Notes: generated by a model not told the origin, from the sequence alone. 64,000 nt of DNA from Bacteroidales bacterium (GCA_007118135.1 SKSE01000154.1:5465-69464); one strand, 5' to 3'. Positions 414 through 33,910 are shown, counted from the first letter of the stretch. Numbers and translations are program-made.

Positions 414-1896
414 CGTATTGCCTTTGCTGATCCTTGTTAGCTCCCTAATTCCCGGTACACTGATTCTGTTGTTGCGGGAAGAACAGGTCGCTCTCCGTAC
501 TTTTCTTAACCTCTCCGGGGCAGTTGCCAAAGTGGGTCTGATCGCCTGGGTATTTGTCGGTTACCTGCGCGGCCAGGAGTATACCTTTTTCTTCAGGCTG
601 GCTCTTGACCTGACCTTTTCGCTGCGGGTAGATCAACTGGGTCTTTTCTTTGCTGCTCTCTCGGCGGTGCTTTGGCTGGTAACTACCCTGTATGCCATCG
701 GCTATCTGGAAGGTGGAAAGCACCGCAGGCGGTTTTTTGCTTTTTTTAGTCTCTGTGTAACCGCCAGTACCGGTATTGCCCTGTCGGGGAATGTGCTCAC
801 TTTCTTCATATTCTATGAATTTTTAACGTTGTCGACCTATCCGTTGGTTGTTCACCGGGGGACCGATAAGGCCGTGGAAGCTGGCCGAACCTACCTGTGG
901 TATACCATTGGCGGGGGTACAGTTCTGTTTTTGGGTGTGGTTGGTTTGTTTGTGCTTGCCGGCCCTATCTATTTCGGACAGACCGAAATCATCGCAGACC
1001 TGATTTCGGTTTACCCGACTCAATTGTCTATTCTTTTTTTCATTTTATTAACGGGCCTGGCAGTTAAAGCAGCGATCTTTCCCCTACACGGATGGTTGCC
1101 TGTCTCGATGGTTGCACCGGCACCGGTCAGCGCGCTCCTGCATGCCGTAGCCGTAGTTAAGGCCGGGGCCTTCGGCATTGTCCGTCTGGTTTATGATGTT
1201 TATGGTATCGGAGTTGCCGAACATATGAACTATCTGAACGTGTTGGCGGTATTTGCCGCTTTTACGATTATCTATGGATCTCTCCGGGCTTTGTTTCAGG
1301 ATGATTTTAAAAAACGGCTCGCCTACTCCACGGTCAGCCAGCTTTCCTATATAGCCCTCGGGGTGGCCATTCCGGGAGTTCTAACCTCTACCGGAGCGAT
1401 TGTACACCTGGTTCATCAGGGAATCATGAAGATTACCATGTTTTTCGCAGCCGGGAATGTTGCAGAAACCTATGGTTACAAAAATATTAGCCAGTTAAAC
1501 GGTATCGGCCGGCGCATGCCCTTCACCATGGGGGCTTTCACCATAGCTGCTTTTGGAATGATCGGACTGCCCCCGGTTGCCGGATTCATCAGTAAATGGT
1601 ATCTCGGCCTTGGTGCAGTAGAGACCGGAAGCTATTGGGTGGTATTTGTTCTCCTCGCAAGCAGTGCGTTGAACGCAGCTTATTTTCTGCCCATCGTTTA
1701 CCGTGCGTGGTTTTATGAGCCAGAGTACGAGGTATCCAGGCTGCGAAGTTCTGGCCGCCTTGAGACCCAGGCTTTATTATTAATCCCGGTGGTTGTTACC
1801 GGCCTGCTCTCCCTTGCTGCAGGAGTATTTGCTGCTGCAGGCGGCAGTCCGCTGTCTATCGCCCGTGAAATCGCCGAAAAACTTTACATGCCATGA
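394..1896 (+). CDS. Mrp/Mnh antiporter subunit D-like (NuoM/N family) membrane protein, 500 aa
   Basis: Polytopic membrane protein with family blocks: FIFYEFLTLSTYPLV, PLHGWLPVSMVAPAPVSALLHAVAVVKAG, KRLAYSTVSQLSYI, GLPPVAGFISKW. Confidence 0.8.
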   Translation: MPMETTSVLPLLILVSSLIPGTLILLLREEQVALRTFLNLSGAVAKVGLIAWVFVGYLRGQEYTFFFRLALDLTFSLRVDQLGLFFAALSAVLWLVTTLYAIGYLEGGKHRRRFFAFFSLCVTASTGIALSGNVLTFFIFYEFLTLSTYPLVVHRGTDKAVEAGRTYLWYTIGGGTVLFLGVVGLFVLAGPIYFGQTEIIADLISVYPTQLSILFFILLTGLAVKAAIFPLHGWLPVSMVAPAPVSALLHAVAVVKAGAFGIVRLVYDVYGIGVAEHMNYLNVLAVFAAFTIIYGSLRALFQDDFKKRLAYSTVSQLSYIALGVAIPGVLTSTGAIVHLVHQGIMKITMFFAAGNVAETYGYKNISQLNGIGRRMPFTMGAFTIAAFGMIGLPPVAGFISKWYLGLGAVETGSYWVVFVLLASSALNAAYFLPIVYRAWFYEPEYEVSRLRSSGRLETQALLLIPVVVTGLLSLAAGVFAAAGGSPLSIAREIAEKLYMP

Positions 1897-3650
1897 TCTG
1901 GTTTCTCACTATATTATTACCTCTGATGGCTGCGATAATCGCCCCTTTTACACCCGTTGGAAGGAGATTGTCCGGAATTATTTTTTTCACGGCCACTTTA
2001 CCCGCAATATGGCTTGGTCTGGTGGAAGTATCCGGGGTCACAGCACAGTGGTTTATTTTGGAATCGCACTTTTCTCTCGATACACCAAGACGAATTATCC
2101 TACTGCTGACCGGCATCCTTTGGGCTACCTCTGGTCTTTTCGCAGGGTCATATCTAAAAGATGATAAGCGACGCAATGAGTTTTCATTTTATTTTGGCGC
2201 TGCGATGGCTGGTAATTTCGGACTTTTAATCTCTGCCGAAGTAGCTTCATTTTACACCTTTTTTGCCCTAATGACTTTTGCTTCCTATGGCCTGGTTATT
2301 CATAACCGGACCCCGTTTGCCCGGCAGGCGGCTAAAATTTATCTGGTGATGGCGATCATTGGAGAGCTTTTTCTAATCACAGCATTATATCTTGCCGTGC
2401 AGAGTGCCGGCAGTATGCTACTTGCCGATATTCCTGCAGCTCTGGCTCAGGCGCCCAATGGCCGGTTCATTTTCTTGCTTGGCCTTATTGGCTTTGGAGT
2501 AAAGGTCGGGGCAATACCATTGTATTTTTGGCTTCCTTTGGCGCATCCGGCAGCTCCCGCTCCAGCCAGTGCGGTCCTTAGTGGCGCTATGATTAAAGCC
2601 GGATTGGTTGGTTGGATGCACCTTGCTCCGGTAGGTTTGGTCGAATGGCCTTCCCTGAGCTTGCTAATGGTATCCCTGGGATTTATGTCAGCATTAGGTG
2701 CGGCTATCTATGGATTGACTCAGGTTGATCCCAAAACCAATCTCGCTTATTCAAGTATCAGCCAAATGGGGGTTATGACTGTAATTCTGGGTATAGGGTT
2801 GTATGGTGGTATCCCGGCCGGGTTGTTACTTCCGGCAGTTGCTCTTTATGCATTTAATCACGGAACAGCCAAAGCCCTTTTATTTATGGGCACAGCACTA
2901 CCTGCCAAGGTCGGCGGTTCATGGCGAATACTTATGTGGGCAGGTTTAGGGATAGGAGTTTTGGCTATAGCAGGCGGACCACTTACCGGTGGGCTTTGGA
3001 CCAAATATCTGCTAAAAACGTTCCTTGGTGAAACAACTCTGCCGGGGGCTCAAACCTTTTTACTTTTACTTACGCTTTCTGCTGTAACAACGACTTTATT
3101 ACTTAGCCGTTTCTTACACCTTTTGTCTAAGATTAAGGCACCTTCTGAAAATGTGGCACCGGCTTTCCTGATTCCATGGATACTTCTTTTGCTTGCTGGC
3201 GGCTGGTGGACAATGTCACCAATTCTTTTACCCGCAGAATTAATGAACTACATTACAAAAGAAAAGGGCATTATGGCTTTTTTCTGGAATCTGTTCACCA
3301 ACTGGAGCGCAATTTGGCCAATAACACTAGGGGCGTTTCTTATGGCTTTTACCCTGAAATTTGCCACTCTCAACAGGTGGCCAACGAAAGAGCCTCTCTT
3401 GCCTCCGGGCGATTTTGTTCACATAATCCTATTGTCAGGAGATTCGGTTACAAAGGTATTTCAGAAGGGAATTTCCTTGCTGCAGTCCTTCATGCAATCG
3501 TTAAACGGCCCCGAAAAAATATTTTACAATATTTCAGATGACAAACGAACACAACAAATCAGTAATTCTGCTGAAGCCTTACTTCGCCGTTGGGAATTTG
3601 TTGGAATAGGCTTTTTTGTTTTTTTCCTGACCATGTTTTTCTTTCTATGA
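1893..3650 (+). CDS. Third NuoL/M/N-MrpA/D family membrane subunit, 585 aa, with a C-terminal extension of about 190 aa
   Basis: ATGA overlap with the upstream gene. Motifs PLYFWLPLAHPAAPAPASAVLSGAMIKAG and NLAYSSISQMG. The last ~190 aa lack family motifs. Confidence 0.75.
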   Translation: MIWFLTILLPLMAAIIAPFTPVGRRLSGIIFFTATLPAIWLGLVEVSGVTAQWFILESHFSLDTPRRIILLLTGILWATSGLFAGSYLKDDKRRNEFSFYFGAAMAGNFGLLISAEVASFYTFFALMTFASYGLVIHNRTPFARQAAKIYLVMAIIGELFLITALYLAVQSAGSMLLADIPAALAQAPNGRFIFLLGLIGFGVKVGAIPLYFWLPLAHPAAPAPASAVLSGAMIKAGLVGWMHLAPVGLVEWPSLSLLMVSLGFMSALGAAIYGLTQVDPKTNLAYSSISQMGVMTVILGIGLYGGIPAGLLLPAVALYAFNHGTAKALLFMGTALPAKVGGSWRILMWAGLGIGVLAIAGGPLTGGLWTKYLLKTFLGETTLPGAQTFLLLLTLSAVTTTLLLSRFLHLLSKIKAPSENVAPAFLIPWILLLLAGGWWTMSPILLPAELMNYITKEKGIMAFFWNLFTNWSAIWPITLGAFLMAFTLKFATLNRWPTKEPLLPPGDFVHIILLSGDSVTKVFQKGISLLQSFMQSLNGPEKIFYNISDDKRTQQISNSAEALLRRWEFVGIGFFVFFLTMFFFL

Positions 3651-3766
3651 TAACTATTAAGGCAATGAAATATCCGTGATAAAGCTTTTAACTCACAACA
3701 AGTGCTCACTAAGAAAGATAATAAGATGTAAATGGATTTCATTCAATAACTTTAAAAATAATTCGC

Positions 3767-4270
3767 ATGAATACCGGCATTAAAAACCTGAAAACAAGCA
3801 TCCTGATCAAAAGCTTTCTTTTGCGATTTGTTATATTCGCAGCAGGTTGGTTTGTATTGGTAGGCGGACGGCAACTTAGCGACATATTTTTCATGATTCT
3901 TTTTATAGTTGCTACTACTGTTATCAGCATTTATACAGTGCCCCCCGGGCAATGGCTTATTCGCCCCCTTGAGGTTGTCCGGTTTTTTCCCTATTTTCTT
4001 TTAATGGCTTTGCGTGGTGGCTGGGATGTGGCACATCGGGTATTCTTTCCAAAGATTCCCATTGACCCTGATTTTGTAACCATTGAACACGACCGAGATC
4101 CACGAAAAACTCTGGTTCTTGCCTGGGTAATAAGCCTGCTTCCGGGCACAGCCAGTTCCATCATCACCGAAGATAGTATAGTCGTACATGTTCTCGATAA
4201 AAAACTCCCTGTAATCGAAGAAATTATGGAATTACAAAACCGAATCAACAAAATGTTTGTGAGTGGCTAA
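3767..4270 (+). CDS. Na+/H+ antiporter subunit E (MnhE/MrpE)-like
   Basis: 167 aa with two N-terminal TM helices. The block LVLAWVISLLPGTASSIITEDSIVVHVLD matches the MrpE pattern ...ITLTPGT...L.VH..D. Confidence 0.65.
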   Translation: MNTGIKNLKTSILIKSFLLRFVIFAAGWFVLVGGRQLSDIFFMILFIVATTVISIYTVPPGQWLIRPLEVVRFFPYFLLMALRGGWDVAHRVFFPKIPIDPDFVTIEHDRDPRKTLVLAWVISLLPGTASSIITEDSIVVHVLDKKLPVIEEIMELQNRINKMFVSG

Positions 4271-11447: not shown

Positions 11448-13124
11448 TTACTTTTCCTGAAGTTGGTTATCCAATTCTTTGAAGAATTCTTCAAGGTTCA
11501 GGTTTTCAAAAACTTCATTGAGAGTTGGACCAACAATTTCGAGTGATTTACCTACTTCTTCCATAATGGAGTTTATGTTGACTCCCAACTCTGACCAGTC
11601 CAAGCTATTTAATTCTTCAAAAACCTTTTGCAGTTCTCTTGAAATTTCCTGCATACCATCCTTGAAATGCTCATCACCTATTGATTCATTAATTTCGTGC
11701 AAAGCCCTGCTAACTTCATCCCTGGCTTTCTGCATATCTGCTCTAAATTCTTCATTGCTCATTTCAATTTTAATTTGCTCCATGGCTTTGCGTATCTCTT
11801 CGCGGGCCTGTTCCATTTCTTTTTTGATTTCTTCCGAATTAATTTCTTTTCGAACTTCCTCCATAGCTTCGCGAATGGCGATACGAGCCTCATGCATAGC
11901 TTGCCTGATTTCTGCTTTTTCTTCTTCAGATAGTTCGCCCCAATGTATTGATTCACCGTTTTCAAGTACAATCCTTTTGGGTTCTGATGTTAATGTGTCA
12001 GAATGAATGGTGGCAGATAAGGAAATTGAAGGTGTGCTTTCATCAGCCTGGTAAAGTGTTTCACTTTTACTTTCAGTATCAGAAAATGCCAGAAATGATG
12101 GCGGGTTCATCCATGCCAGAGAAATTGTTGCAGCCGCAATTACTATAATTGCTGCAATTTTTTGTCCGGGTTTGAAATTTCTTGTTTTCATGTGCATAAT
12201 GTTTTTAATACGTGTTAATAATGTGTTTTTTGAAGAACTTGCTGCCAGAACCGGTTGCAATGAGCCCTGACGTTTTTCTTCGATGATTAAAAGTGTTTGT
12301 GCATATTTTAAGGGATTGTTGGTTTGTTTTACCACCCATTCATCAACTTTGGATTCTCTTTGCGCTCTTAAAGTTTGCGAAATCCACCAGGTAAATGGAT
12401 GATAAAAAAACAGAATTTCAAGTATGTACTGCAGCGCATTTATGTAATGGTCTTTACAGCGAATATGATAAAACTCATGCAAAATTATGTTTTCAACTTC
12501 CTGTATGCTTATTGAAGCTGAAATGGCAAATGGAAGCAAAACCACCGGCTTGAAAAAACCTGCAACCAATGGTACGGTAACATTAGGCGAAAGCCAGACT
12601 TTTATTTTGTTGCTGATCCCTGTATTTTTTCTGGCTTTAATGATTGCATTTTCCCATGAATCGGGTATCCGCGAAAGCTTACTCCGTTTTATGCGAAACA
12701 GCCTGGTATAAGAAAGAATAAAGTAAGCTGACATCAAAACTATACCTCCAAGGTATATCCAGAAAATAAATGATGAATAACCTTCAAGAAGCATCGATAA
12801 GGTAGTGTTTTCCTTTTGCAGAACATATAAGGAGCTAAGTCCTTCCAGCTTCTCAATGCCCGCCTCTTCAAATTCTACAAAGGCGATACGTTGTACTTTG
12901 CGGTAAATACTGTATTGTTTTAAAAAAGTTATTATGAAAACAACAGGTATTGTAAGTAAGGCAAAAATGCTTAGATTCTGCCTTACAAGAGCCGGGGCTT
13001 TTCTGGCAAATAAAATGGAAATTCTCCAGAGTATTGTAATAACCACAATTTGCCATAAAGAATGTAAAATACTCCATGCAAGAGCATTTACCAAGGGCTC
13101 GGGGATATATTCAATGATTCTCAT
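11448..13124 (-). CDS. BlaR1/MecR1-type M56 peptidase signal transducer with a non-canonical repeat C-terminal domain
   Basis: N-terminal TM helices and zinc motif ILHEFYHIRCKDH (HExxH). 4-nt overlap with the upstream BlaI-like gene. The C-terminus is an acidic helical repeat, not a penicillin-binding domain. Confidence 0.8.
   Translation of the reverse strand: MRIIEYIPEPLVNALAWSILHSLWQIVVITILWRISILFARKAPALVRQNLSIFALLTIPVVFIITFLKQYSIYRKVQRIAFVEFEEAGIEKLEGLSSLYVLQKENTTLSMLLEGYSSFIFWIYLGGIVLMSAYFILSYTRLFRIKRSKLSRIPDSWENAIIKARKNTGISNKIKVWLSPNVTVPLVAGFFKPVVLLPFAISASISIQEVENIILHEFYHIRCKDHYINALQYILEILFFYHPFTWWISQTLRAQRESKVDEWVVKQTNNPLKYAQTLLIIEEKRQGSLQPVLAASSSKNTLLTRIKNIMHMKTRNFKPGQKIAAIIVIAAATISLAWMNPPSFLAFSDTESKSETLYQADESTPSISLSATIHSDTLTSEPKRIVLENGESIHWGELSEEEKAEIRQAMHEARIAIREAMEEVRKEINSEEIKKEMEQAREEIRKAMEQIKIEMSNEEFRADMQKARDEVSRALHEINESIGDEHFKDGMQEISRELQKVFEELNSLDWSELGVNINSIMEEVGKSLEIVGPTLNEVFENLNLEEFFKELDNQLQEK
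11451..11945 (-). repeat. Tandem 27-aa (81-bp) repeats, about 5-6 copies, forming the BlaR1-like C-terminal domain
   Basis: Aligned units: HWGELSEEEKAEIRQAMHEARIAIREA / MEEVRKEINSEEIKKEMEQAREEIRKA / MEQIKIEMSNEEFRADMQKARDEVSRA / LHEINESIGDEHFKDGMQEISRELQKV / FEELNSLDWSELGVNINSIMEEVGKSL. Conserved columns include E11, hydrophobic 13, M17 and R21. Confidence 0.75.
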
Positions 13125-13507
13125 GGATTTTTGTTTTCAAATTGTTTGAGATACTCTTTGATCTCATCAATATCTTTGCGCGATAGCTCCTTTTGATCAA
13201 GAGCACCCATAATAAGACGGCTTTCGGAGCCTTTAAACAAGCCGTTGAGCATTTTATTCAGAAATTTTTTCTGGATTTTTTCCCTGCTTAACAGTGGTTT
13301 GTAGATGTGAGTCCGGTTTGATGTGTTTCTTTCCAGTAAACCCTTTTCAGTCATTATTTGCATAATCTTTAGTGTGGTTGTATAGCCGGTATCTTTTACC
13401 TGCTCCAGCACTTCGTGAACCTCGCGAACGGTTGCATTACCCTTATCCCATAGTATCTGTAGGATTTCAAGTTCGCTTTCTGTAGGGTTGTATTTTTTAT
13501 TGCTCAT
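13121..13507 (-). CDS. BlaI/MecI/CopY-family winged-helix transcriptional repressor
   Basis: 128 aa. N-terminus ...ELEILQILWDKGNATVREVHEVL...GYTTTLKIMQIMTEKGLL is the family wHTH. Located directly upstream of the M56 gene. Confidence 0.85.
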   Translation of the reverse strand: MSNKKYNPTESELEILQILWDKGNATVREVHEVLEQVKDTGYTTTLKIMQIMTEKGLLERNTSNRTHIYKPLLSREKIQKKFLNKMLNGLFKGSESRLIMGALDQKELSRKDIDEIKEYLKQFENKNP

Positions 13508-13512
13508 AGGTG

Positions 13513-13528
13513 TACGAATATTTTCGTA
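13513..13528. promoter_or_regulatory. Operator 1: perfect 6-4-6 palindrome TACGAA-TATT-TTCGTA
   Basis: Read directly from the sequence. Lies 6 nt upstream of the blaI-like ATG. TAC...GTA outer bases resemble BlaI/MecI/CopY boxes. Confidence 0.65.
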
Positions 13529-13529
13529 G

Positions 13530-13537
13530 CAAATTTA
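13530..13537 (-). promoter_or_regulatory. Bacteroidota -7 box TAAATTTG for the blaI-blaR1-like operon
   Basis: Matches TAnnTTTG on the minus strand and lies exactly between the two palindromes. Confidence 0.55.
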
Positions 13538-14950: not shown

Positions 14951-14991
14951 ATTAATCTTTAAAATTACTTTTTCCAACCCAAAGCAAGCCC

Positions 14992-16770
14992 ATGGAAGAC
15001 CATATTATCCGGATGTTTCTAAACCGGACAAAAACCTATGACCACGAAGAAGTTCTGCGATACAGGGATAAAGATAAAATCTATCAGTCATTAAGCTGGA
15101 AACAGCTAAAGGCAAGAGTTGATGATACAATTTCGGGCCTAAGTACATTGGGCTGCAAAAAGCAGGAGAATGTAGGGATTTTTAGTTCGAACCGATACGA
15201 ATGGTTAATTACCGATTTGGGTATTCTGGCCAATAGTTCTGTTGTTGTACCCTTTTATTCAACAGCTTCGAGGGAGCAGGTTAAATATATTGTTGATGAA
15301 ACCCAGATGCGATTTATTTTTGTTGGAAACAAAGAGCAGATGGAACTTGCTCTATCATTAATTGATGAAGGCTCTACTTTGAAAAAGGTAATTTCATTTG
15401 ATCCGGTTGTTACTGATGATGAGCGTGTAATAAGCTTCGAAAACTTTTTGCTCCTCCCATCGCAAAACGGAATAAACCTGGTTATTGAAGATTTGGAACC
15501 AAATTACAGTGCACAGGATCTGGCCACAATAATTTATACATCGGGCACAACCGGCGAACCAAAGGGCGCAATGCTAAAGCATGATAATTTTATGTATTGT
15601 TTTCATATTCATGATAAAAGGCTGGATGTAAATGAAAAAGATGTTTCGTTGAGTTTTCTTCCCCTTAGCCATGTTTTTGAAAGATTGTGGAGTCATTATA
15701 TGTTACATTGCGGCGCTGTAAATGTATTTCTTGAAAACCCCAGAGAAGTAATTGAAGTGCTTCCTGTTGTTAAACCCACACTTATGTGCACAGTTCCCAG
15801 GTTTTTTGATAAAACCTACGAAGGGATTCATAATGAATTGAGTAAATGGCCAGCATTTAAACAAAAGATATTTAATTGGTCAATGTCCATAGGGCACGAA
15901 GTAATTGAATACAAATGTCGTACTAAGAAACCCCCTTTCATTCTCAGATTCAAGCATCAGATTGCTGATATTCTTGTATTAAAAAAACTCAGGAAAATAT
16001 TTGGCGGAAAAATTAAAGCAATGCCTTGTTCTGGTTCTGCAATAGATACATATATTCTGAAATTTTTTCATGCCATGGGGATATTCGTTAATTATGGATA
16101 TGGTGCCACTGAAACCACGGCAACAGTTTCCTGTTTTAAAACCGACAGGTATTATTATGGTACATGTGGTTCAGTAATGCCCGGGGTAGAAGTAATGATA
16201 ACTGAAGAAAGTGAAATTCTGGTGAAGGGAAGGAGTGTTTTTTCATTTTATTATAAAAAACCAGCCGAAACAAAGGAAGCATTTCAGGATGATTGGTTCA
16301 AAACAGGTGATGAAGGTTATGTTGACCATCAGAATAACCTGATTATGATAGATCGTATAAAAGATCTTATGAAAACTTCAGTGGGGAAATACGTATCGCC
16401 CCAAAAACTGGAATTGTTGCTTAGTCGCGACGAACTGGTTGAACAAATTATTGTTGTTGGCGATAACCGCCAGTTTGTTACCGCTCTTGTTGTACCCGCT
16501 AAGGAGAAACTTATGCAGGTTGCTAAAAATGTAGGTATTTCGTATGATAATGAAAGTGACTTGATTCAGTCCAAAGGTACATATCAGCTTTTCGAAAACC
16601 GTTTCAGTAATCTTCAAAAAGATCTTACGCCATATGAAAGGGTGGTAAAGTTTGTTCTTCTTAAAGAACCTTTTAGCATTGAAGCCGGTACTATGACAAA
16701 TACACTTAAGTTGCGCAGAAGATCTATTGAGAAAAGCTACAAGCATCTTATAGACCAAATGTATTCCTGA
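14992..16770 (+). CDS. AMP-dependent synthetase/ligase (long-chain acyl-CoA synthetase-like), 592 aa
   Basis: Motifs IIYTSGTTGEPKGAMLKHDNF, YGYGATETT, DWFKTGDEG. Confidence 0.85.
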   Translation: MEDHIIRMFLNRTKTYDHEEVLRYRDKDKIYQSLSWKQLKARVDDTISGLSTLGCKKQENVGIFSSNRYEWLITDLGILANSSVVVPFYSTASREQVKYIVDETQMRFIFVGNKEQMELALSLIDEGSTLKKVISFDPVVTDDERVISFENFLLLPSQNGINLVIEDLEPNYSAQDLATIIYTSGTTGEPKGAMLKHDNFMYCFHIHDKRLDVNEKDVSLSFLPLSHVFERLWSHYMLHCGAVNVFLENPREVIEVLPVVKPTLMCTVPRFFDKTYEGIHNELSKWPAFKQKIFNWSMSIGHEVIEYKCRTKKPPFILRFKHQIADILVLKKLRKIFGGKIKAMPCSGSAIDTYILKFFHAMGIFVNYGYGATETTATVSCFKTDRYYYGTCGSVMPGVEVMITEESEILVKGRSVFSFYYKKPAETKEAFQDDWFKTGDEGYVDHQNNLIMIDRIKDLMKTSVGKYVSPQKLELLLSRDELVEQIIVVGDNRQFVTALVVPAKEKLMQVAKNVGISYDNESDLIQSKGTYQLFENRFSNLQKDLTPYERVVKFVLLKEPFSIEAGTMTNTLKLRRRSIEKSYKHLIDQMYS

Positions 16771-17697: not shown

Positions 17698-19554
17698 CTA
17701 TTTAAAATAACCATATTGCCTGAGAATTTGAGTAAGTTTTTCCACGGCTTGTGAGGGTTCAATATTTTTGATTATCGGGGTCTTTGCTTTGTATAAATGC
17801 AGTTTTCCGGTTGCAGTGCCTACAAAACCAAAATCTGCATCAGCCATTTCTCCGGGTCCGTTAACTACACATCCCATTACGGCAATTTTTAATCCGGGCA
17901 TACCAGAAAAGTGATTCTGCACTTCGTGTAAAACCTTCTGTAGCTCAAAGGAAGTTCGGGCGCATGTGGGGCAGGAGATAAATTCGGTACGGGTAATTCT
18001 TAATCCTGCCGATTGAAGAAAACCAAAGCTGATTTCTGTGGTGTTTACTAATAAAGAATCTTCTTCCAGCCATAAACCCTGAATTCTTTTTTCAAGCAAA
18101 TAGTTTCCAAACTGAATTGCGGCGCGTATGATAATATCATCCGTATCACTCTAACAAAATCTCTTACGTAAAATCAGAGGGATTTTATTTGATTGACAGA
18201 TATTGACAAGATTCTGCAAATTGCAGGTTTCTTCGCAATTTCTAATATAAGTAACAACGGCCAGTGGCTTACTGTCTGTTGTTAGTTTAAAAATTATATC
18301 ATCATTGGTACAGCTAAACTGAAGTAAACTTTTTTCTGATTCAAAATCATATCTCTCTATTATATCGGCATCCACCAGCGATATGATGTTTTTAACTTTT
18401 GTGTTTTTCAGTTTATTCAAAGAAATAATAAAGTTTTTATCCTTGTTTTTTTCAGCCAGAGAAGAATCATTGGTATAGAAATAATCAGCAATCAGCTTGT
18501 CTTCAGGATTTTTCTCCAATACTCCTGGGTGAGTAAAATTGGCAGATGATAGATTATCTTTTATTTTTTCACTTTCGACCACCACAGCCTTTATTTTACT
18601 AAACGGGAAAAATATTTCACTTCCCTGGTCGTCAAGTTTCCTGATGTGGTATTTCTGAAAAGTATTTTTCTGTGAAAATGCGTTTTGATAAAAGGAAGAT
18701 ATTTTTCGGGCAAATGGAATTTCATCTTCCGGCGGTTCGGTTAGACTCACCCGCAATGTATCGCCAATTCCTTTGTTAAGTAATGTGCAGATGCCGAGTG
18801 CTGATTTTATGCGGCCATTTTCACCATCACCGGCTTCGGTAATACCGATATGAAGAGGGTATTTCATGTTGCTTTCAAGCATTTTTTCCACCATAGCTTC
18901 ATAGGCTTGCACCATTACCAAAGGTTTGCTTGCTTTTAAAGACACTACCAGGTTATTAAAATCCAGCTCACGGAATAATTCCAGAAACTCAAAAGTGGCC
19001 ATAACCATTCCCTGCGGGGTGTTGCCGTAATGAGAAACTATGCGCGCCGAAAGAGAGCCCATGTTTGTACCAATCCTTATTGCAGTACCATTTTCTTTGC
19101 AAATATCTACCAGGGGTTTAAGTTTTTTCCGGGCTATCTCCAACTCAGCTTTGGTTTCGGCCTCATTAAAATGAATTTTGTTTTTTGCAGAACTTCGTAT
19201 GTAGTTTCCCGGGTTAATCCTGATTTTCTCAACGTATTTGGCCGCTTCAAGTGCCACATCGGGATTGAAATGTATATCGGCAATAACAGGATTGTTGAAA
19301 CCGGCTGCTATCAGGCCTGATTTTATTTCTTTCAGTTTATGAGCAGCCTGCATAGTGGGAGCAGAAATCCTTACGTAATCAGCTCCTGCATTTAATATTC
19401 TGATGCATTGTTCAATGGTTGCTTGTACATTCAGTGTATTGGTATTGGTCATGGATTGTAACCTTATGGGATGATTTGAACCCATAGGGATTTCGCCAAT
19501 TTGAACATCATGACTGGGAAACCGGGTAATAAATGGTAGATTACCTGAACTCAT
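17698..19554 (-). pseudogene. ispG: ispG (HMBPP synthase, long Bacteroidota/plant-type form) interrupted by one in-frame TAG at 18151-18153
   Basis: The ORF-track fragments 18151..19554 and 17698..18099 are in the same frame. The read-through is ...PLILRKRFC*SDTDDIIIRAAIQFGNYLLEKRIQGLWLEED.... The N-terminal part has the TIM-barrel motifs (IRLQSMTNT, RINPGN, GTNMGSL, HIGITEAG). The C-terminal part has the Fe-S ligand motifs (SCPTCARTSF, GCVVNGPGE). Confidence 0.85.
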
Positions 19555-19760: not shown

Positions 19761-20531
19761 ATGGACTATCCGGGATTAAGAGTTGAAATTAAGGACAAAA
19801 TTGGCATAATTACCATGTCGCGCCCGCAGGTATTGAATGCTTTGAACTCAGAAGTAATTAACTCTCTTCAGTCAGTCCTGAAATCTTTACCCAAATTTCC
19901 TGAAATACTATCTCTTATCATTACCGGAGAGGGCAAGGCGTTTGCAGCCGGGGCGGATGTAAAAGAGTTATCAGAAATGAATCCTGCACAGGCCTTTAAT
20001 TTTTCGAGTAAAGGACAGCAAACATTTGGGCGTTTCGAAAAACTTCCTTTTCCCGTGATTGCCGCAATCAATGGTTATGCGTTAGGGGGTGGCTGTGAGC
20101 TGGCTCTTGCATGCGATATAAGGATTGCATCAGCTAGTGCAAAATTTGGCATGCCGGAAACCAGTCTTGGTCTAATGCCAGGTTTTGCGGGTACACAAAG
20201 ACTTTCCAGAATTGTGGGTTACGGTAATGCTATTTATCTGATGACCACCGCAAAAACTATCAGTGCTCAAGAAGCTTTAAGAATGGGACTTATTCAGGAA
20301 ATTACTGAACCGGAAGAGCTTTTAAAGGTAAGCACAGAAGTTGCTAAAAAAATAACTTCGCAGGGAAAATATGCAGTAAGGGCTGTAAAAGAAATGGCTT
20401 TGCGTAGTTATTCATTTGATTTTAAAAATTCAGCCGAGTTGGAATCGGAAGTCTTTGCCGGTTTGTTTCACAGACCCGAAGCTGATGAAGGCATGAGGGC
20501 ATTCATCGAAAAACGAAAACCCAACTGGTGA
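19761..20531 (+). CDS. Enoyl-CoA hydratase (crotonase family)
   Basis: 256 aa. Motifs GKAFAAGADVKE and INGYALGGGCELALACDIRIAS. Confidence 0.85.
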   Translation: MDYPGLRVEIKDKIGIITMSRPQVLNALNSEVINSLQSVLKSLPKFPEILSLIITGEGKAFAAGADVKELSEMNPAQAFNFSSKGQQTFGRFEKLPFPVIAAINGYALGGGCELALACDIRIASASAKFGMPETSLGLMPGFAGTQRLSRIVGYGNAIYLMTTAKTISAQEALRMGLIQEITEPEELLKVSTEVAKKITSQGKYAVRAVKEMALRSYSFDFKNSAELESEVFAGLFHRPEADEGMRAFIEKRKPNW

Positions 20532-20620
20532 TTGAATCTTACACACTTACACTTACTATAACAGGAACGGATTCAGCTTTAACATCAATCTTATCCTTAA
20601 TCTAAACTTAAACCTTAAAC

Positions 20621-21955
20621 ATGAAGTACGAAGCAAAACTGGAAAATGTAACTGTACTTGGCGCTGCCGGGAAAATGGGTAGCGGCATATTATTTCTTAC
20701 AGCAGCAGAAATGACCAGACAAAAATTTTTACCTGAAAACAAAAACAGGGATTTTACACTCTATGCTTTGGATACAAGTAACAGGGCTTTGTCTGGATTG
20801 ATTAGTTATATACGTGAACAAGCCTGGAGGTTTGCCGAAAAAAACATTGTTGCCTTGCGTAAAACCTATCACGACAGGGCCGATTTAATTGATAATGAAC
20901 ATATCATAAGGCAATATGCCCAGGATTTATTAAGCATAATCAGACCAGTTACCCGAATGGAATCTGCATTTGATTCTAATATTATATTTGAAGCTGTCAG
21001 CGAAAATCCTGATTTGAAAGTGCAGCTCATGTCAACTATTAATAAAAATAACCCTAATAAACCCTGGTTCTTTACCAACACCTCTGCAATTCCCATTTCG
21101 TGGCTCGATGAGCAGGCCGGATTAAACGGCAGGATTATGGGAGTACATTTTTACAATCCACCTGCAGTACAAAAACTATTGGAAGTGGTGAAAACAGAAA
21201 ATACCCGTCCTGAACTCTCTTATTTTGTTGCAGAATACATCAAAAACCTTAAAAAGATTTATGTCCCTTCTTATGATGTAGCAGGGTTTATAGGAAACGG
21301 TTATTTTATGCGCGATATTCTTTTTGCTGAAAGGATGGTAAATGAACTTAAAGAAAATTTCTCTTACGTGCAGGCAGTTTACATGGTGAATAAAATAACT
21401 CAGGATTTTCTGATCAGGCCTATGGGAATATTTCAACTGGTAGATTATGTGGGCATCGATGTGGTGCAATTTATAATGTCAGTAATGAAACCCTATGCAA
21501 TTAAGGAAAATATACACTCAACGTTGATTGAGAATCATATTAATAATATTGTAAAAGGAGGCCAATACCCCGATGGAAGACAGAAAGACGGAATTTTTAA
21601 ATACGAAAAAGGACAAATTACAGCAGTTTATGATCCAGATAAAAAACGATATTTTAATGTTTCTGAATTTTCAAATGAATGTGATGAGTACCTTGGAGAG
21701 TTACCCGAAGGATGGCAAACCTGGAGAAAAATTAACCGTGATTCAGAAAAGGATGAGAAACTCAAAAAATATTTTGAAAATCTTCGTTTAAGTAAAAAAC
21801 CCGGAGCACAACTGGCTATGGAGTATTTAAGAAAGTTCAGGGAAATTGCATCTGAACTGGTAAAAAATAAAGTTGCATTCAAATTTGACGATGTAAATGC
21901 GGTTCTTTTACATGGGTTTCATCATGCATATGGACCCGTAAATGATTATATATAA
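20621..21955 (+). CDS. 3-hydroxyacyl-CoA dehydrogenase family protein, atypically long (444 aa)
   Basis: N-terminal Rossmann VTVLGAAGKMGSGI, the HFYNPP block typical of HAD (HFFNP), and extra C-terminal helical region. Confidence 0.7.
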   Translation: MKYEAKLENVTVLGAAGKMGSGILFLTAAEMTRQKFLPENKNRDFTLYALDTSNRALSGLISYIREQAWRFAEKNIVALRKTYHDRADLIDNEHIIRQYAQDLLSIIRPVTRMESAFDSNIIFEAVSENPDLKVQLMSTINKNNPNKPWFFTNTSAIPISWLDEQAGLNGRIMGVHFYNPPAVQKLLEVVKTENTRPELSYFVAEYIKNLKKIYVPSYDVAGFIGNGYFMRDILFAERMVNELKENFSYVQAVYMVNKITQDFLIRPMGIFQLVDYVGIDVVQFIMSVMKPYAIKENIHSTLIENHINNIVKGGQYPDGRQKDGIFKYEKGQITAVYDPDKKRYFNVSEFSNECDEYLGELPEGWQTWRKINRDSEKDEKLKKYFENLRLSKKPGAQLAMEYLRKFREIASELVKNKVAFKFDDVNAVLLHGFHHAYGPVNDYI

Positions 21956-22013
21956 AATAGTTATGAGCCAAATGTCATTATCCTTTATAAAATCGCCAGA
22001 AAATAATTCTTCC

Positions 22014-23252
22014 ATGAAACTAAGAAAAAAAGTATATATGATTGCCGGTTACAACACCATTTCCATGGGAACCGGAAGAAGTGAGTTCCACCCAAAAAAG
22101 CCACGTCCGGGTCTTGAAGATTACATCAAAGAAGCCGGCGAAAATGTCTTGAGTCAGATTGGTGGAGCAAAAAATGTTGATGAATGTGTTATTGCCAACT
22201 TTATTGCCAGCCGTTATAATAAACAGGCAAACCTTGCTGCTTTTTTTCCTTATATTGATCCGAATTTAACCTATAAACCTTGTATAAGAGTTGAAGGAGC
22301 ATGTGCTACCGGAGGACTTGGACTGGCCACCGGAATAAAAAGCATCCTTGCCGAAACAGCTGATGTGGTGCTGGTGGTAGGAGTAGAAGTTCAGAATTCA
22401 GTAAAAGCAGTTTATGGTGCCGATATTCTTGCTGCAGCAGGATGGTATAAGGAACGTAAAGATGGCCATGCCCATTTTTTTCCGGGAAAATTCAGTGACA
22501 GGGCAGGGGCATATTTTGAAAAATACGGAAGAGGAAAAACCCGAAAGGCAATGGCCCGCTGGTACACCAATGCCATTGAGAATGCCCGATTGTGCCCTAC
22601 AGCACAGGAATTTGAAAATTCTCAGAAAAATCTTGAACAGCTTGCACTTACTGAGCCCAATCCAAATATGTTTGTTGACCATTTGAATGTATATGACTGT
22701 TCTAAAGTTTCCGATGGTGCTTCAGGAATAGCAATTGTTTCGGAAGAGGGTTTAAAGCGTTGTGGTATTAGCAAAAAAGATGCGATTGAAGTTGTTGGGT
22801 TAGGACAGGCAGAGTATGATTTAACCAAAGCACCTGATGACCCTGTAAGACTTACAACGACTGACTTAGCAGTGAAAAAAGCACTTGAAATGGCAGGTAT
22901 AAACCACCAAAAGCTTGCAACTGTTGAATGCCATGATTGTTTTACCATTGCTGCAATAATGGCTGTAGAGGCTATGGGATTTGCCAAACCCGGTGAAGGA
23001 TCGGATTTTATCCTTGAAGGCCATACGTCACGTGAAGGAAAAATTCCTTTTAACACAACCGGTGGTTTGATAGGCTGGGGACATCCTACGGGTGCCACAG
23101 GAGTGCACCAGGCAGTTACCATTTGGGAACAACTTACTCAAAGGGCCGGTCAGTCGCAGATAAAAATTCCTACAGCAAGACCTTATGCCCTTAGTGTAAA
23201 TATGGGAGGTGATGACAAAACTTTGGTCTCTATTGTTTACAAAAAGTGCTGA
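22014..23252 (+). CDS. Thiolase-like protein (SCP-x / DitF-type acetyl-CoA acetyltransferase family)
   Basis: Start chosen at MKLRKKVYMIAGYNT (the ORF-track start at 21942 overlaps the HAD gene). Active-site Cys context VEGACATGGLGLATG. C-terminal GGLIGWGHPTGATG. Confidence 0.7.
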   Translation: MKLRKKVYMIAGYNTISMGTGRSEFHPKKPRPGLEDYIKEAGENVLSQIGGAKNVDECVIANFIASRYNKQANLAAFFPYIDPNLTYKPCIRVEGACATGGLGLATGIKSILAETADVVLVVGVEVQNSVKAVYGADILAAAGWYKERKDGHAHFFPGKFSDRAGAYFEKYGRGKTRKAMARWYTNAIENARLCPTAQEFENSQKNLEQLALTEPNPNMFVDHLNVYDCSKVSDGASGIAIVSEEGLKRCGISKKDAIEVVGLGQAEYDLTKAPDDPVRLTTTDLAVKKALEMAGINHQKLATVECHDCFTIAAIMAVEAMGFAKPGEGSDFILEGHTSREGKIPFNTTGGLIGWGHPTGATGVHQAVTIWEQLTQRAGQSQIKIPTARPYALSVNMGGDDKTLVSIVYKKC

Positions 23253-23286: not shown

Positions 23287-26200
23287 TCAGTTTTTTGTTA
23301 CAACAAATTTTACGCTTTCACCGCTGATACTTCGAAAAATATAAACACCGTTGGATAATGATTGTATTGAAATGGAATTACTATTTTCAATTACATCCAT
23401 AACTCTACCGGTAATGTCAAATAAATAGCCTGAGGTTGTTTTGTTAAAGTAGACTTTATCTCCCATTACAGGATTGGGGTAAGTAATTAATTTATTTTCA
23501 TTAATTAAATCAATATCATCGGTATTGGTTAAATAGTCAACGATTTCCACTTTGTTAAGTGCAAGCATATCCCTTGCATTTACATTCGGATTGCTTTGCT
23601 GGCCGGTAAAGTAATAAAGCCATCTCACTTGTACATAAGGCTGATTTAATGCTTCTTCAGGAAGCTTAATGTCTAAGAATTCCTGAGAATGTCCCGGGTT
23701 TTCATTTCGCAGGTATTCAATAATTTGCCCGTTGTTGTCTCTGAAGTTTTTCCAGTTAGAGTCTATACTTGCACGGTATTGTGGTCTTAAAGCATAATTT
23801 CTTGAATTGGGAATAATTGTAGATGCTGTCCAGTTTAGATAAAGTTGACTTAGATTCCGGGTATCCAATGCCAGGACAGCAGCTCCCAAATCGCGCCCCC
23901 TTCCTGTATTGATAAATGAAATACCGTTTTCTCCCAATCCGTTAATACGGGTTCTGCGGGTATTGCGATAAGGAAATCCTATGTTTCCCTGATCATCAGA
24001 AGCATAATCATCTGGCAATATATGATAAGCATGTAAAATTGCTGTTCCCGGACCGGGATCATCCTGCTTACTTTGAACAAAAAGCATATTATCCGGAAAA
24101 CTTCCGGCAGGCTCATCTGCACTCCAATAATTAAATATAAAAGAAGGGTCCGATGTTAAATCTTTAGCTTCTGGATATACAAGTACATAAAATGACTTTT
24201 TAAGCGGAGGATTCTGTCCATCAGAAACGATAACATTTACCTTTGTGCCTCCTCTAACCTGTGGCTCAATAGTAAGCTGACCGAAGTTTAAGTCCACTGA
24301 TACATGTTCACTCGATTCGGCATCAATTGTGTAAACTAATACATCACCATCAGGATCTTTAAAGTAATGATCAAAATTTATACTTTTTGAATTACTATTT
24401 TCGATGAGTTTAAAAGCATCAGGAAACCATCTCGTCTGATATGGAGGCCTGTTGGTTTCCGGCATAGCTTCACCGTCAAGGGTAACATTATCGATACGAT
24501 TGTTACCTACCTGCCCACCAGTACCATCATTTTCCTGGTGAAAGGAAATTTTTACAGCAAAATCAGGGTTGTTGTTTGTTTCTTCTATAGTTTTGAAATC
24601 AAACTGATATAGCGAAGGAATTTCGGTAACGGAAATAGTATCAAAAGCAAAAAAGTCATTACCATTTACAGTATATGAAATGTATTGCCTGTTGGCTCCG
24701 CTTCCCGATCTGCGTCCTTCGTATGAAAATAAAAGATCTTTATAACCTGTTGTGGGTAAATGAAAAATAATTTCTGTTCCTATCGGATTGTTATTTCTTA
24801 AATGCGTTCCCGTAACATCACCGTTTCGTGAGTTTAACCCTGCAAAATCCTGTCCGCTGCCCGTTGTTATTTCACTTTGTGATGTTCCGTTATACTCCAG
24901 TTGTGCTTCATTAATGGTATATGTTGGATGCATGAAATCAGCTTCATCATTAAAATTCCAATAATGAAGCATGGTAAGAGGTTCGCCGAGTTGGCTGTCC
25001 ATCCATGCCAAACGGGCTTCAATCCAATCTATCATCCAAAATACCTCTTCATCCCAGGTTTCACCTATAAACCAATTGGGCCAGATATAGGTACCCAGTA
25101 TTGGCCATCTTTGATAATTACGTTCCTGGGATTCATTGAGAAGATTATGGTATTCGAGTACTTTACCCACCATATGGCCATTTGAGAAGGCGGTTTGCCT
25201 TAAACTACGGTATCTCCGGTTATATTCCCGGCTGAAGTTTTCATCCATAAATAAACGAGTATACCAGCCCCGCAGATAATCATGTTGTGAAAGCAATGGA
25301 TAATACCATCCTTGTGGGATCCAGCCATTTAAGTAGTTGGCATTACCCAGTGAAAGGTTAAAATCCCAAAGAGGACCTGAAAACAGCTTGCCATTGCGGT
25401 TCTTATAAAAAAATGTGCTTAATCGATAGCCGTCAATTTCTTTAAAAAGTTCAGTTAAAAGATGCATATCTATAAAAGAACGGGCATTAAGAAACTCTGA
25501 ATAATTACCCGGGGGATTATTAGGCCAGCCTTGAAATAAAGCTGCTTCCAGTGAGTCAAGGAACGAAATTAAGTAATTGCGTTGACCAGGTGTAATATCC
25601 CACTCATTGGGTCTTACGAAAGCATAATGACTACCCCTGCCGGTATAAAATCCCGCTTCCCCGGTATTTAGTCGGTCAATTTTAAAAATGTAACCACCTG
25701 ATACCTCCGGAAACTCATTATGGTGGGGTTCCAAATCTTCCAGCTCAACTCTTCCCGGTGCAATCTTAATTCTCTCAGTCAGAACATAAACACCATGATA
25801 GTGTTCATCTTCCAATGGCCCTGTGCCACTATGTATGAACAATTCAATAAAGCGTGTCCGCGGAGAATATTGTCCTATATCATTGCTCAACGAGTACGAA
25901 TAAGCATTGCGCATAAGGGTTTTGTCGGAGTATGGGCCATGCAAAACCCAGTTATGTTCTTCGGGCATACCCAGTAAAGAAACTTTTCTGTTGTTTTTAT
26001 TCTCTTCCAAAATATGGAAACCAAAACCCTTTTTCGGGAAAGACTGGGAGCTACTGCCCCTGATATTAATTTTAATTCGCCCATCAAAGGCTGGTGCGTC
26101 CGTAATTTGTTTCCTTTCCCCTGAGTGATTATCCAGAATTGTCATGTAAGCAGATGTTCTGTTACCGGGGGAAATTGGCGTATCAAATTCATGAATTATC

Positions 26201-27513
26201 ATAACCGGGATATTGGAAGAGAAATTTTCTATGTTTTTATCAGCTACAGAAAATGTTGCAGCCGCAATTTCACTTCTCAAACTATTCTCGCGAACAGCAG
26301 CGGCTCGCACCCATGCTGTATTGTTTATTGTAAAAGGTTCGTTGAATAGTGTGCCGTTATCAATATCTGGAGTGCTTCCATCGGTGGTATAATAGATATC
26401 TGCGTCTGTTTCCGGAGAAATAATATTAACTGTTACAGGATTACTATATACCCCTGCAGATGGAAAGATGTGCGGTTTTTCTGCTATTTCGGAGAATCCA
26501 CGCACGGGGTTTGGAGTTTCAGGGGTTGAATTCTCGAAATAGAACCATTCGCTGCCTTCTCCTTGAATTCTGCCAAAAGAAATATTCGTTGGGATGTGAA
26601 CAGGAGGCATAGAATCTATTCTTTGTCCCTGTGGTGAAGTTAAGATCAACTCTTCTCCGGCCGAACTTATTCTGAAGTTTGTGTGCCAGCGTGCAGATGG
26701 GATTTCGCAGTTTGAAATATTGAGAGGTTCTTCGATTGTATTATCAGGTAATCTCCATCTTACAGAAAGATTATCGCTGCCATAACCTTCCTTCATGAGA
26801 GCTGAAAGATAGTATTTTTGACCCTCCTGAAGTGTGATTGGATTTGATTGTTGTTGCGAATATGTAAACCAATCACGCGGATTGGTCCAACCTGGAACAT
26901 GGGCTATAAGCTCTGCATTATCAGGTGAATCATCAGTGCTTAAATATAGTCTTGAATTATCATCGCTGGCAATCCAGAAAATATAATTTCCCGTGGCAGG
27001 AGCGGTAATCCATGCATACATATGCTGACCGTAGTTATCGTCAATATTGGCAGGGGCTTCGAAGTAATTTATTACTACATTTCTGCTTGCCGGGTGATCG
27101 GGAAAGCTTGGATGATTGATAAGATTATCAACACTTGTACCGGGAATACCAGGGTAGAAAAGTCGTTGAATACCGTTTTGCATGTCATGTGGAATAGGTT
27201 TCCTGTCCTTCCCTGAAGCCCAAATGAGCAGATATTCGCCTGGTTGCATAATATATTCAGGCATTATCCATTTAAAAGGTTCTTCATAATTATCAGACAG
27301 ACCGATACCTTCCAGATTAACCGGTTCAGATCCGTAATTAAATATTTCAATCCAGTCTTCAAAGGATCCATCATCGTCAGAAATAATGTCGCGGTTAGAT
27401 GCCATTACTTCATTAATCCGGATGGTTTGAGAAAATAAGTTATTGCAATTTAGGATGGAGAACAAAATCCAAAATAGAAGCAATGAATTGTTTTTTTTAA
27501 AGGGGTAGTACAT
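23287..27513 (-). CDS. 1408-aa secreted multidomain protein: lamin-tail domain, PA14-like, chitobiase-C-like, CotH kinase-like, cadherin-like, then T9SS C-terminal sorting domain
   Basis: LTD: IRINEVMASN...DGSFEDWIEIFNYGSEPVNLEGIGLSD. PA14-like: GNYIFWIASDDNSRLYLSTD. CHB_HEX_C-like: IYYTTDGSTPDIDNG. CotH: IKINIRGSSSQSFPKKGFGFHI...DKTLMRNAYSYSLSNDIG. T9SS tail: ITYPNPVMGDKVYF...NGVYIFRSISGESVKFVVTKN. Confidence 0.8.
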   Translation of the reverse strand: MYYPFKKNNSLLLFWILFSILNCNNLFSQTIRINEVMASNRDIISDDDGSFEDWIEIFNYGSEPVNLEGIGLSDNYEEPFKWIMPEYIMQPGEYLLIWASGKDRKPIPHDMQNGIQRLFYPGIPGTSVDNLINHPSFPDHPASRNVVINYFEAPANIDDNYGQHMYAWITAPATGNYIFWIASDDNSRLYLSTDDSPDNAELIAHVPGWTNPRDWFTYSQQQSNPITLQEGQKYYLSALMKEGYGSDNLSVRWRLPDNTIEEPLNISNCEIPSARWHTNFRISSAGEELILTSPQGQRIDSMPPVHIPTNISFGRIQGEGSEWFYFENSTPETPNPVRGFSEIAEKPHIFPSAGVYSNPVTVNIISPETDADIYYTTDGSTPDIDNGTLFNEPFTINNTAWVRAAAVRENSLRSEIAAATFSVADKNIENFSSNIPVMIIHEFDTPISPGNRTSAYMTILDNHSGERKQITDAPAFDGRIKINIRGSSSQSFPKKGFGFHILEENKNNRKVSLLGMPEEHNWVLHGPYSDKTLMRNAYSYSLSNDIGQYSPRTRFIELFIHSGTGPLEDEHYHGVYVLTERIKIAPGRVELEDLEPHHNEFPEVSGGYIFKIDRLNTGEAGFYTGRGSHYAFVRPNEWDITPGQRNYLISFLDSLEAALFQGWPNNPPGNYSEFLNARSFIDMHLLTELFKEIDGYRLSTFFYKNRNGKLFSGPLWDFNLSLGNANYLNGWIPQGWYYPLLSQHDYLRGWYTRLFMDENFSREYNRRYRSLRQTAFSNGHMVGKVLEYHNLLNESQERNYQRWPILGTYIWPNWFIGETWDEEVFWMIDWIEARLAWMDSQLGEPLTMLHYWNFNDEADFMHPTYTINEAQLEYNGTSQSEITTGSGQDFAGLNSRNGDVTGTHLRNNNPIGTEIIFHLPTTGYKDLLFSYEGRRSGSGANRQYISYTVNGNDFFAFDTISVTEIPSLYQFDFKTIEETNNNPDFAVKISFHQENDGTGGQVGNNRIDNVTLDGEAMPETNRPPYQTRWFPDAFKLIENSNSKSINFDHYFKDPDGDVLVYTIDAESSEHVSVDLNFGQLTIEPQVRGGTKVNVIVSDGQNPPLKKSFYVLVYPEAKDLTSDPSFIFNYWSADEPAGSFPDNMLFVQSKQDDPGPGTAILHAYHILPDDYASDDQGNIGFPYRNTRRTRINGLGENGISFINTGRGRDLGAAVLALDTRNLSQLYLNWTASTIIPNSRNYALRPQYRASIDSNWKNFRDNNGQIIEYLRNENPGHSQEFLDIKLPEEALNQPYVQVRWLYYFTGQQSNPNVNARDMLALNKVEIVDYLTNTDDIDLINENKLITYPNPVMGDKVYFNKTTSGYLFDITGRVMDVIENSNSISIQSLSNGVYIFRSISGESVKFVVTKN

Positions 27514-27665
27514 GTAATCAGGTTTAACATGACAAAGATATAAATAAAACGAGGAAAATCATTTTGCTACATTTTATCAGATCCTTATATGCTATTAAAC
27601 TTACATGAATCCAACCATATCGAATAAATAGTAATAATTTATGTTAAAATTCATAAAAATAGGTA

Positions 27666-33270: not shown

Positions 33271-33693
33271 TTAACTATTCAAATCAATTGTGTCCCAATA
33301 TTCTCTGGGTGTTAAAATTTTAGTGTATTCAAATTCTGTTAACCGGAAATCCTGGGTGTTGCCGGTTATTAAATAATCTGCTGAGCTTATTGCTGCTAAT
33401 TCCAAAAATTTATTATCACTTGTATCTGCTAATACATCAACCTTACGATTTGTTTGATAAAATTTGGATATTTCACGAATCTTGTTTAAAACTACATCCG
33501 CATTTGTCTTGAAGTTCGGGAATCTCAGGAATTTTTCCCTATTCATTACTTCAAGATATTCTGAAAAAATTTCATCTGAAAGACATGTCTCCACTCTCTT
33601 TGTTAGCACCAAATGATATAGAATCATTGTTGGAATAGAGTTTGAAATTAAAGCAGAAACTATAACATTTGTATCAAGAATGAGTTTTTGCAT
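33271..33693 (-). CDS. PIN-domain toxin (TIGR00305-like TA toxin component)
   Basis: 140 aa. N-terminal LILDTNVIVSALIS and C-terminal ADYLITGNTQDF are typical of this PIN subfamily. Confidence 0.75.
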   Translation of the reverse strand: MQKLILDTNVIVSALISNSIPTMILYHLVLTKRVETCLSDEIFSEYLEVMNREKFLRFPNFKTNADVVLNKIREISKFYQTNRKVDVLADTSDNKFLELAAISSADYLITGNTQDFRLTEFEYTKILTPREYWDTIDLNS

Positions 33694-33910
33694 CTCTTAC
33701 AGCTTTTATTTCTGCATTAATTTCATCCATTGACATTTTTGATAAACCTTCTTGTTCTGCAATCGCATTACATTCCAGAAGTGCTTTTCTGGCATACTCT
33801 CTGCTAATCAAATCTACGAGGTCAGTAAATTTAATTTCTTCACTTCCAAGGTTATATTTTTTAAAATCAGTCTCACTTACTTTTATCTGCAATGTTCTCA
33901 TAAAATTCAA
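33674..33910 (-). CDS. Putative cognate antitoxin (78 aa, family not recognised)
   Basis: Overlaps the PIN gene start by 20 nt. Small and acidic. Assignment is by position only. Confidence 0.45.
   Translation of the reverse strand: MNFMRTLQIKVSETDFKKYNLGSEEIKFTDLVDLISREYARKALLECNAIAEQEGLSKMSMDEINAEIKAVRDAKTHS

Follow-up and report, generated by a model that had tools for sequence, protein, structure and literature searches.

The amber codon that interrupts the ispG gene of an uncultured soda-lake Bacteroidales bacterium is probably a very recent single-base nonsense allele, which lies on a real strain haplotype and was captured by the assembly of one sample. It was found in a 64-kb stretch of genomic DNA (GCA_007118135.1, SKSE01000154.1:5465-69464; hereafter the window), in which one codon of an otherwise intact gene of the MEP pathway reads TAG, whereas nearly all other assemblies of the same species read GAG. 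Whether allele or artefact, the finding is an ordinary one and matters chiefly for annotation: this ispG should be labelled as a nonsense allele of one strain or else as a possible error. It should not be taken to show that the lineage uses recoding, has a split IspG or has lost the MEP pathway.

The interrupted ispG gene

The ispG (gcpE) gene occupies positions 17698-19554 on the minus strand and consists of 618 codons of the three-domain A-A*-B form, with one internal TAG and its natural terminator, also TAG, at 17698-17700. Translation of the minus strand across this interval gives exactly one stop within the frame, between LILRKRFC and SDTDDIII, and a second one at the end. The internal stop is codon 468 of 618 (18151-18153, minus strand), where a direct reading of the plus strand of the window gives cta; the variable base is plus-strand position 18153, which is A in the window and C elsewhere. 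A preceding reading of this DNA, made from the sequence alone, had placed an amber codon at these positions between two fragments in one frame, which the translation bears out.

Both pieces match the Pfam GcpE family on their own (1.6e-85 for the upstream 467 residues and 2.4e-29 for the downstream 150 residues), and the joined protein matches it at 2.8e-116 and reaches 405 bits against NCBIfam TIGR00612 (ispG_gcpE), for which the cut-off is 280. A database protein of 618 residues (P0001) agrees with the frame at 100% of positions once codon 468 is set aside. Judged from these matches, the feature is clearly one interrupted gene and not two chance ORFs. The uninterrupted frame expected of IspG is broken in the window by the TAG and is present in seven sister assemblies.

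Domain architecture and position of the stop

Three-domain IspG/GcpE proteins, found in Bacteroidota, Chlorobi, Chlamydiae, Verrucomicrobia and plastids, have the same A, A* and B domains as the window protein, with three Cys and one Glu as ligands; the window frame differs from them in its interruption within A*, where codon 468 reads TAG. The catalytic TIM barrel (A domain) covers residues ~11-289 (18688-19524, minus strand; Pfam positions 2-245) and was delimited with phmmer against 3noy, 4mwa and 2y0f; residues 11-289 align to 3noy_A with an E-value of 2.4e-57 and to 4mwa_A with 2.1e-47. The B domain with its [4Fe-4S] cluster covers residues ~506-612 (17719-18039, minus strand), of which residues 506-609 align to residues 252-354 of 3noy. 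Its ligand codons, all on the minus strand, are C528 (17971-17973), C531 (17962-17964), C562 (17869-17871) and E569 (17848-17850), which are invariant columns in an alignment of 58 sequences. All four lie downstream of codon 468, so that both the intactness of the Fe-S cysteine contexts beyond the stop and the absence of the [4Fe-4S] domain from a truncated product, as the sequence-only reading had stated, hold.

Between these two PDB-matching segments lies the A* insert domain (residues ~290-505; 18040-18687, minus strand), whose ~215 residues are without counterpart in the solved two-domain IspG structures and whose extent was taken from this gap and from an AlphaFold2 model. Passages of PMC10663253 name this insert the A* domain, give it a TIM-barrel-like fold, describe its role as unknown and present it as typical of Bacteroidota, Chlorobi, Chlamydiae and Verrucomicrobia. 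The AlphaFold2 model, built from the 58-sequence alignment, has a mean pLDDT of 85.4 and a pTM of 0.90, and in it A* is made up of eight predicted beta-strands alternating with helices. In the model, codon 468 falls in the loop between strand 7 (residues 460-466) and helix 471-487, with strand 8 at residues 493-498, and it sits 38 residues before the start of the B domain. The stop does separate the TIM barrel from the Fe-S domain, as had been proposed, but it does so inside A* and not at a domain boundary.

The A* domain also differs from its neighbors in the way it varies. Compared with a 94%-identical syntenic ortholog (18040-18687 versus L093:334-2088), A* shows 28 non-synonymous and four synonymous differences; against the same ortholog, the A domain has seven non-synonymous and eight synonymous differences, and the B domain one and 12, respectively. 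From these counts, the evolution of A* seems almost neutral over short time scales. Columns D357, G493 and W495 of A* are invariant or nearly so over deep time.

Codon 468 in related genomes

Seven assemblies of the same species, ~99.9% identical to the window, read GAG (Glu) at codon 468. This set comprises loci L001-L005 and L007 and the JGI-independent NCBI MAGs GCA_003560815.1, GCA_007124675.1 and GCA_007136235.1. The DNA that was fetched encodes P0001 in five assemblies and a one-residue variant in a sixth, with GAG in all six, and in five GAG assemblies only one base separates the 1857-bp ispG from that of the window. The mutation on the gene strand is G>T, turning GAG (Glu468) into TAG (C>A at 18153 on the plus strand). 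Identity to the window is 99.90-99.96% for all loci of the species, measured over 5.6-21.9 kb that contain no indel, and by this measure all these assemblies represent one species. The syntenic ortholog at 94% identity (P0122), which comes from another run, has GAT at codon 468. Among 58 homologues, this column holds T in 23 cases, E in 10 and S in five, followed by I, N, G and others, which places position 468 among the most variable columns of the alignment.

Several points of the sequence-only reading can be settled from these comparisons. Its claim that the gene carries no other damage stands, as the window ispG equals the GAG consensus except for one base in 1857 bp. Its suggested search for a sense codon in related strains yields GAG in the seven sister assemblies. 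The rule attached to that search, that a sense codon in relatives would indicate an error, is too strong, since a second assembly has TAG together with a linked SNP. Four options had been put forward, namely an error, a very recent pseudogene, programmed read-through and a split enzyme; the seven GAG sisters eliminate programmed read-through as well as a gene that evolved to be split, which leaves a very recent null allele and an artefact.

Recurrence of the TAG haplotype

The TAG at codon 468 recurs in contig k141_163445 of the ENA assembly ERZ27301261, where it yields a product of 467 residues (P0124) that falls in the same protein cluster as the window's own product. When the 133-residue downstream ORF was looked up, ERZ27301261 was the only TAG contig found, and this assembly has no recorded full-length product with GAG. 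An exact look-up of the window's 467-residue product among indexed contigs gave no match, and neither did metagenome contigs scanned with exact patterns that span the SNP and give its base as K. The haplotype is marked by a second variant, a synonymous SNP (CGT versus CGG, both Arg) at 21208 on the plus strand in a 3-hydroxyacyl-CoA dehydrogenase gene. The T at 21208, 3 kb from the TAG, is private to the two TAG-carrying assemblies and absent from every GAG assembly. The recurrence of TAG together with this linked SNP argues against an invented base and for a real haplotype, probably in a single sediment sample from Cock Soda Lake.

The ERZ27301261 contig was compared with the window over 27 kb (10628-37575) and is not a copy of it. 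There are ~16 differing sites, comprising seven in 18.9 kb, position 29574 and eight at the contig end; between 16383 and 37530, the two sequences are the same except at 18555/18556 and 29574. The two TAG assemblies disagree at 14158, 15033, 15046 and 16246/7 and agree at 18153. Sites at which assemblies of apparently the same reads disagree are presumably polymorphic within the sample. Pairs of assemblies apparently from the same sample agree at both 18153 and 21208, with TAG and T in sample A and GAG and G in the others, a sequence pattern which suggests that the TAG haplotype may be the majority in sample A only.

The sample from which the window comes, presumably CSSed162cmA, appears to have been re-assembled as ERZ27301261. 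Among the consecutive ENA accessions ERZ27301261, ERZ27301262 and ERZ27301263, the SNPs of ERZ27301262 track the sample-B MAG and those of ERZ27301261 track the window. The window itself, with a GC content of 40.2%, can be assigned to the MAG CSSed162cmA_513 (SKSE00000000; GC 40.19%) from Cock Soda Lake sediment, as we infer. This MAG has a coverage of 39.8x, a strain heterogeneity of 33% and a completeness of ~86% (PMC6704655, supplementary dataset). Its sister MAGs from the same sediment belong to family UBA7960 (= ML635J-40 group) and include SLEQ (CSSed162cmB_587, 35x coverage) and SLHJ (CSSed165cm_150, 78x) (PMC6704655). Both TAG assemblies were made with MEGAHIT, according to the k141 contig names in ENA and, for the MAG, PMC6704655, and they probably used the same reads; because of these probably shared reads, they are not independent observations of the DNA.

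The background of microdiversity amounts to ~66 SNP sites in 34 kb among the assemblies, and the SNPs of the first 22 kb include ~24 synonymous and ~16 non-synonymous changes. Random coding substitutions would create stops here in 4.6% of cases, so that one nonsense SNP among ~60 is no excess.

Some of this variation is clustered. The window has TT at 16246-16247 (plus strand) in place of the GG of six sisters, so that residue 431 of an AMP-binding protein (14956-16770) is Phe and not Gly. Similarly, ERZ27301261 (L006) has an adjacent pair of substitutions at 18555-18556 inside ispG, which results in N338Y. Each of these tandem changes occurs in one assembly only and may reflect either a dinucleotide mutation or a local artefact of the consensus. 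In addition, eight SNPs fall within 37 bp (37531-37567) at the end of the ERZ27301261 contig (L090), in the N-terminal part of a pyruvate:ferredoxin oxidoreductase (PFOR); this cluster represents either a hotspot of variation among strains or an assembly artefact of the contig end.

A probable recent nonsense allele and its likely effect

On the reading that we consider likely, a G>T change would have hit the three-domain ispG of one strain haplotype of this UBA7960 population, and for one sediment sample the assembler would have settled on that haplotype as its consensus, while other samples of the population keep the intact gene. RF1 should then terminate at codon 468 and leave a product of 467 residues, which would contain the A domain and seven-eighths of A* and have no Fe-S domain; the allele would presumably abolish IspG activity. 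The case resembles segregating nonsense polymorphisms and nascent pseudogenes, which are likewise single-base changes, strain- or sample-specific and without secondary decay, against a background of ~0.1% microdiversity. It differs from the usual segregating nonsense alleles in that the gene is normally indispensable in MEP-reliant bacteria and that the allele is apparently the consensus in one sample. If TAG does occur at high natural frequency, it would pose a small genuine population-genetic puzzle, that is, the persistence of a null allele with no known bypass.

Two further candidates were rejected on the sequence of the gene. An older pseudogene should show several lesions or relaxed constraint, and nothing else in ispG has changed relative to the GAG consensus; over its 1857 bp, the stop alone sets it apart from the intact allele. 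Phase variation was likewise set aside, as the site TTTTGT[G/T]AGAGTG has no repeat tract.

Stop codon usage in the window

Each of the three stop codons is used as a terminator in the window: for ORFs of at least 120 residues, TAA is used by 26, TGA by 14 and TAG by seven of the 47. The window also carries prfA (61167-62240, plus strand), whose product, release factor 1, recognizes UAG and UAA and is thus direct evidence from the window that UAG acts as a stop; it was identified by the Pfam domains PCRF and RF-1 and by an NCBIfam score of 529.6 bits against a cut-off of 400, and its translation is intact with the PQT and GGQ motifs. A reassignment of TAG is excluded by these findings, in agreement with the sequence-only reading, which had called it unlikely. 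That reading had also counted at least six other genes ending in TAG; its use as a terminator is confirmed, but the number in this set of ORFs, small genes being uncounted, is five others plus ispG itself.

Alternative explanations

It is also conceivable, though rather unlikely, that the organism's gene is intact and that the TAG arose while the library was prepared or sequenced or the consensus was built, for instance through oxidative G>T damage or an assembler bubble that was resolved in favor of a minor erroneous path. All assemblies of the species other than the two with TAG have GAG, these two probably derive from a single read set and a single family of assemblers, and damage by 8-oxoG gives rise to G:C>T:A transversions, to which class the change belongs. 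On the other hand, De Bruijn assemblers emit only k-mers that were seen repeatedly, and at ~40x coverage a random base-call error at the consensus level is unlikely. An artefact would be expected to be unreproduced and free of linked variants, and ERZ27301261, even if probably built from the same reads, has the TAG together with the private 21208T at a distance of 3 kb, just as the window does; moreover, the two assemblies differ at truly polymorphic sites, yet agree at 18153. A damage signature of the G>T type specific to the window was also looked for and rejected, G<->T differences being equally common among the other assemblies. If the allele is instead real but harmless, the rest of the genome might encode another ispG or a mevalonate pathway and so render the window copy expendable, which would account for the tolerance of a null allele and might escape notice in a MAG that is only ~86% complete. 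We regard this as very improbable, given that the sister strains keep ispG perfectly intact and that the B domain is under strong purifying selection, as its one non-synonymous against 12 synonymous differences from the 94% ortholog indicate. No mevalonate-pathway gene or second MEP gene occurs in the 64-kb window, and a survey reported no alternatives to IspG among MEP-pathway bacteria (PMC10663253). P0122, the nearest other ispG that was found, stems from a different run and represents a syntenic ortholog rather than a paralog. In a scan of genome contigs with P0001, the best match among those listed is a relative at 55%, the matches being saturated by the universally conserved GEMADADF motif.

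A lethal allele is not expected as the majority in a sample; cells in which the TAG is both real and dominant must have some means of survival. That it is a real dominant amber allele, with cells viable via read-through, a suppressor tRNA or complementation between fragments, appears unlikely; if true, an essential and 'evolutionarily rigid' Fe-S enzyme would be naturally maintained through a nonsense codon. Leaky amber decoding by a near-cognate tRNA, or by a suppressor tRNA encoded elsewhere, might give some full-length IspG from a real allele, a version which we consider quite improbable. It would supply the residual function that is needed if the allele really dominates a sample, and residue 468 is highly variable and lies in a strand-helix loop, where almost any inserted residue should be tolerated. 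Against it, the stop is conserved in no relative (GAG in the sisters, GAT in the ortholog, and T, E, S, I, N or G in homologues), RF1 is intact, and no RNA structure follows the stop: the fold of the 131 nt around and after it has an MFE of -19.4 kcal/mol (z = +0.70, with 150 of 200 shuffles at least as stable), and neither an Rfam family at gathering score nor a tRNA gene was found in the 64 kb. Programmed recoding, whether read-through, selenocysteine or pyrrolysine insertion or a TAG-reassigned code, likewise involves an in-frame stop in an otherwise intact coding sequence, but here the stop is unconserved, no RNA element lies downstream, TAG terminates other genes in the presence of RF1, and ordinary, variable residues occupy the site in relatives. 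Any read-through would thus be incidental and at a low level, with no sign of an evolved mechanism, and such incidental read-through at a permissive loop is the least unlikely route of survival if the allele dominates. The other route, in which a fragment of residues 1-467 and one restarted at TTG486 assemble non-covalently into active IspG, is barely credible. This candidate start (Leu486; 18097-18099, minus strand) lies 51 nt 3' of the TAG and is the only in-frame ATG, GTG or TTG between the stop and the B domain, as the sequence-only reading had noted, and the 486-618 product would contain the whole region of B-domain homology (residues 506-612). In two-domain IspG, moreover, the A domain of one chain works together with the B domain of another, according to passages of PMC12605070. 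A TTG 51 nt past a stop is, however, a weak start, and both it and its surroundings are identical in the GAG strains, which implies no adaptation to a split; no relative with a split gene was found. In the model, the break falls inside the A* barrel after strand 7 and not between domains, and residues 468-485, missing from both fragments, make up most of helix 471-487 and include the conserved D470, D472, I475, A479 and G483. Of the marks of a genuine split enzyme, a conserved split and a break at a domain boundary are not seen here, and the only candidate for a downstream start of its own is TTG486, which omits the conserved helix 471-485. The rationale of a head-to-tail dimer, invoked in the sequence-only reading, belongs to two-domain bacterial IspG, which is a head-to-tail homodimer (e.g., in Aquifex, Thermus and E. 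coli) and shares with the window protein the need for A and B to close over the substrate. The window protein is of the A-A*-B class with a third domain, which in the same passages of PMC12605070 is modelled as a monomer, so that the dimer argument does not transfer directly.

Other genes in the window

With the very recent nonsense allele retained as the likely reading of ispG, several other features of the window may be mentioned. The divergent neighbor of ispG is a cluster encoding crotonase, 3-hydroxyacyl-CoA dehydrogenase and thiolase (19761-23252, plus strand), which represents butyrate or beta-oxidation-type chemistry and, despite the thiolase, not the mevalonate pathway. A protein of ~1400 residues with LTD, PA14, Fn3-associated, CHB_HEX_C and CotH domains is encoded at 23287-27558 (minus strand), and its called start varies among strains, giving 1372 or 1408 residues. 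Subunits of a Mrp/Mnh-type Na+/H+ antiporter (two Proton_antipo_M proteins and MnhE) are encoded at 385-4270 (plus strand), which fits the presumed haloalkaline soda-lake origin. A BlaI/BlaR-like sensor-repressor pair (Penicillinase_R and Peptidase_M56) is present at 11448-13534 (minus strand). In addition, a PIN-domain protein (33271-33693, minus strand), whose start is overlapped by an ORF of 75 residues (~33674-33901, minus strand), probably forms a toxin-antitoxin pair with it, and this pair sits between a MiaB-like radical-SAM gene and PFOR.
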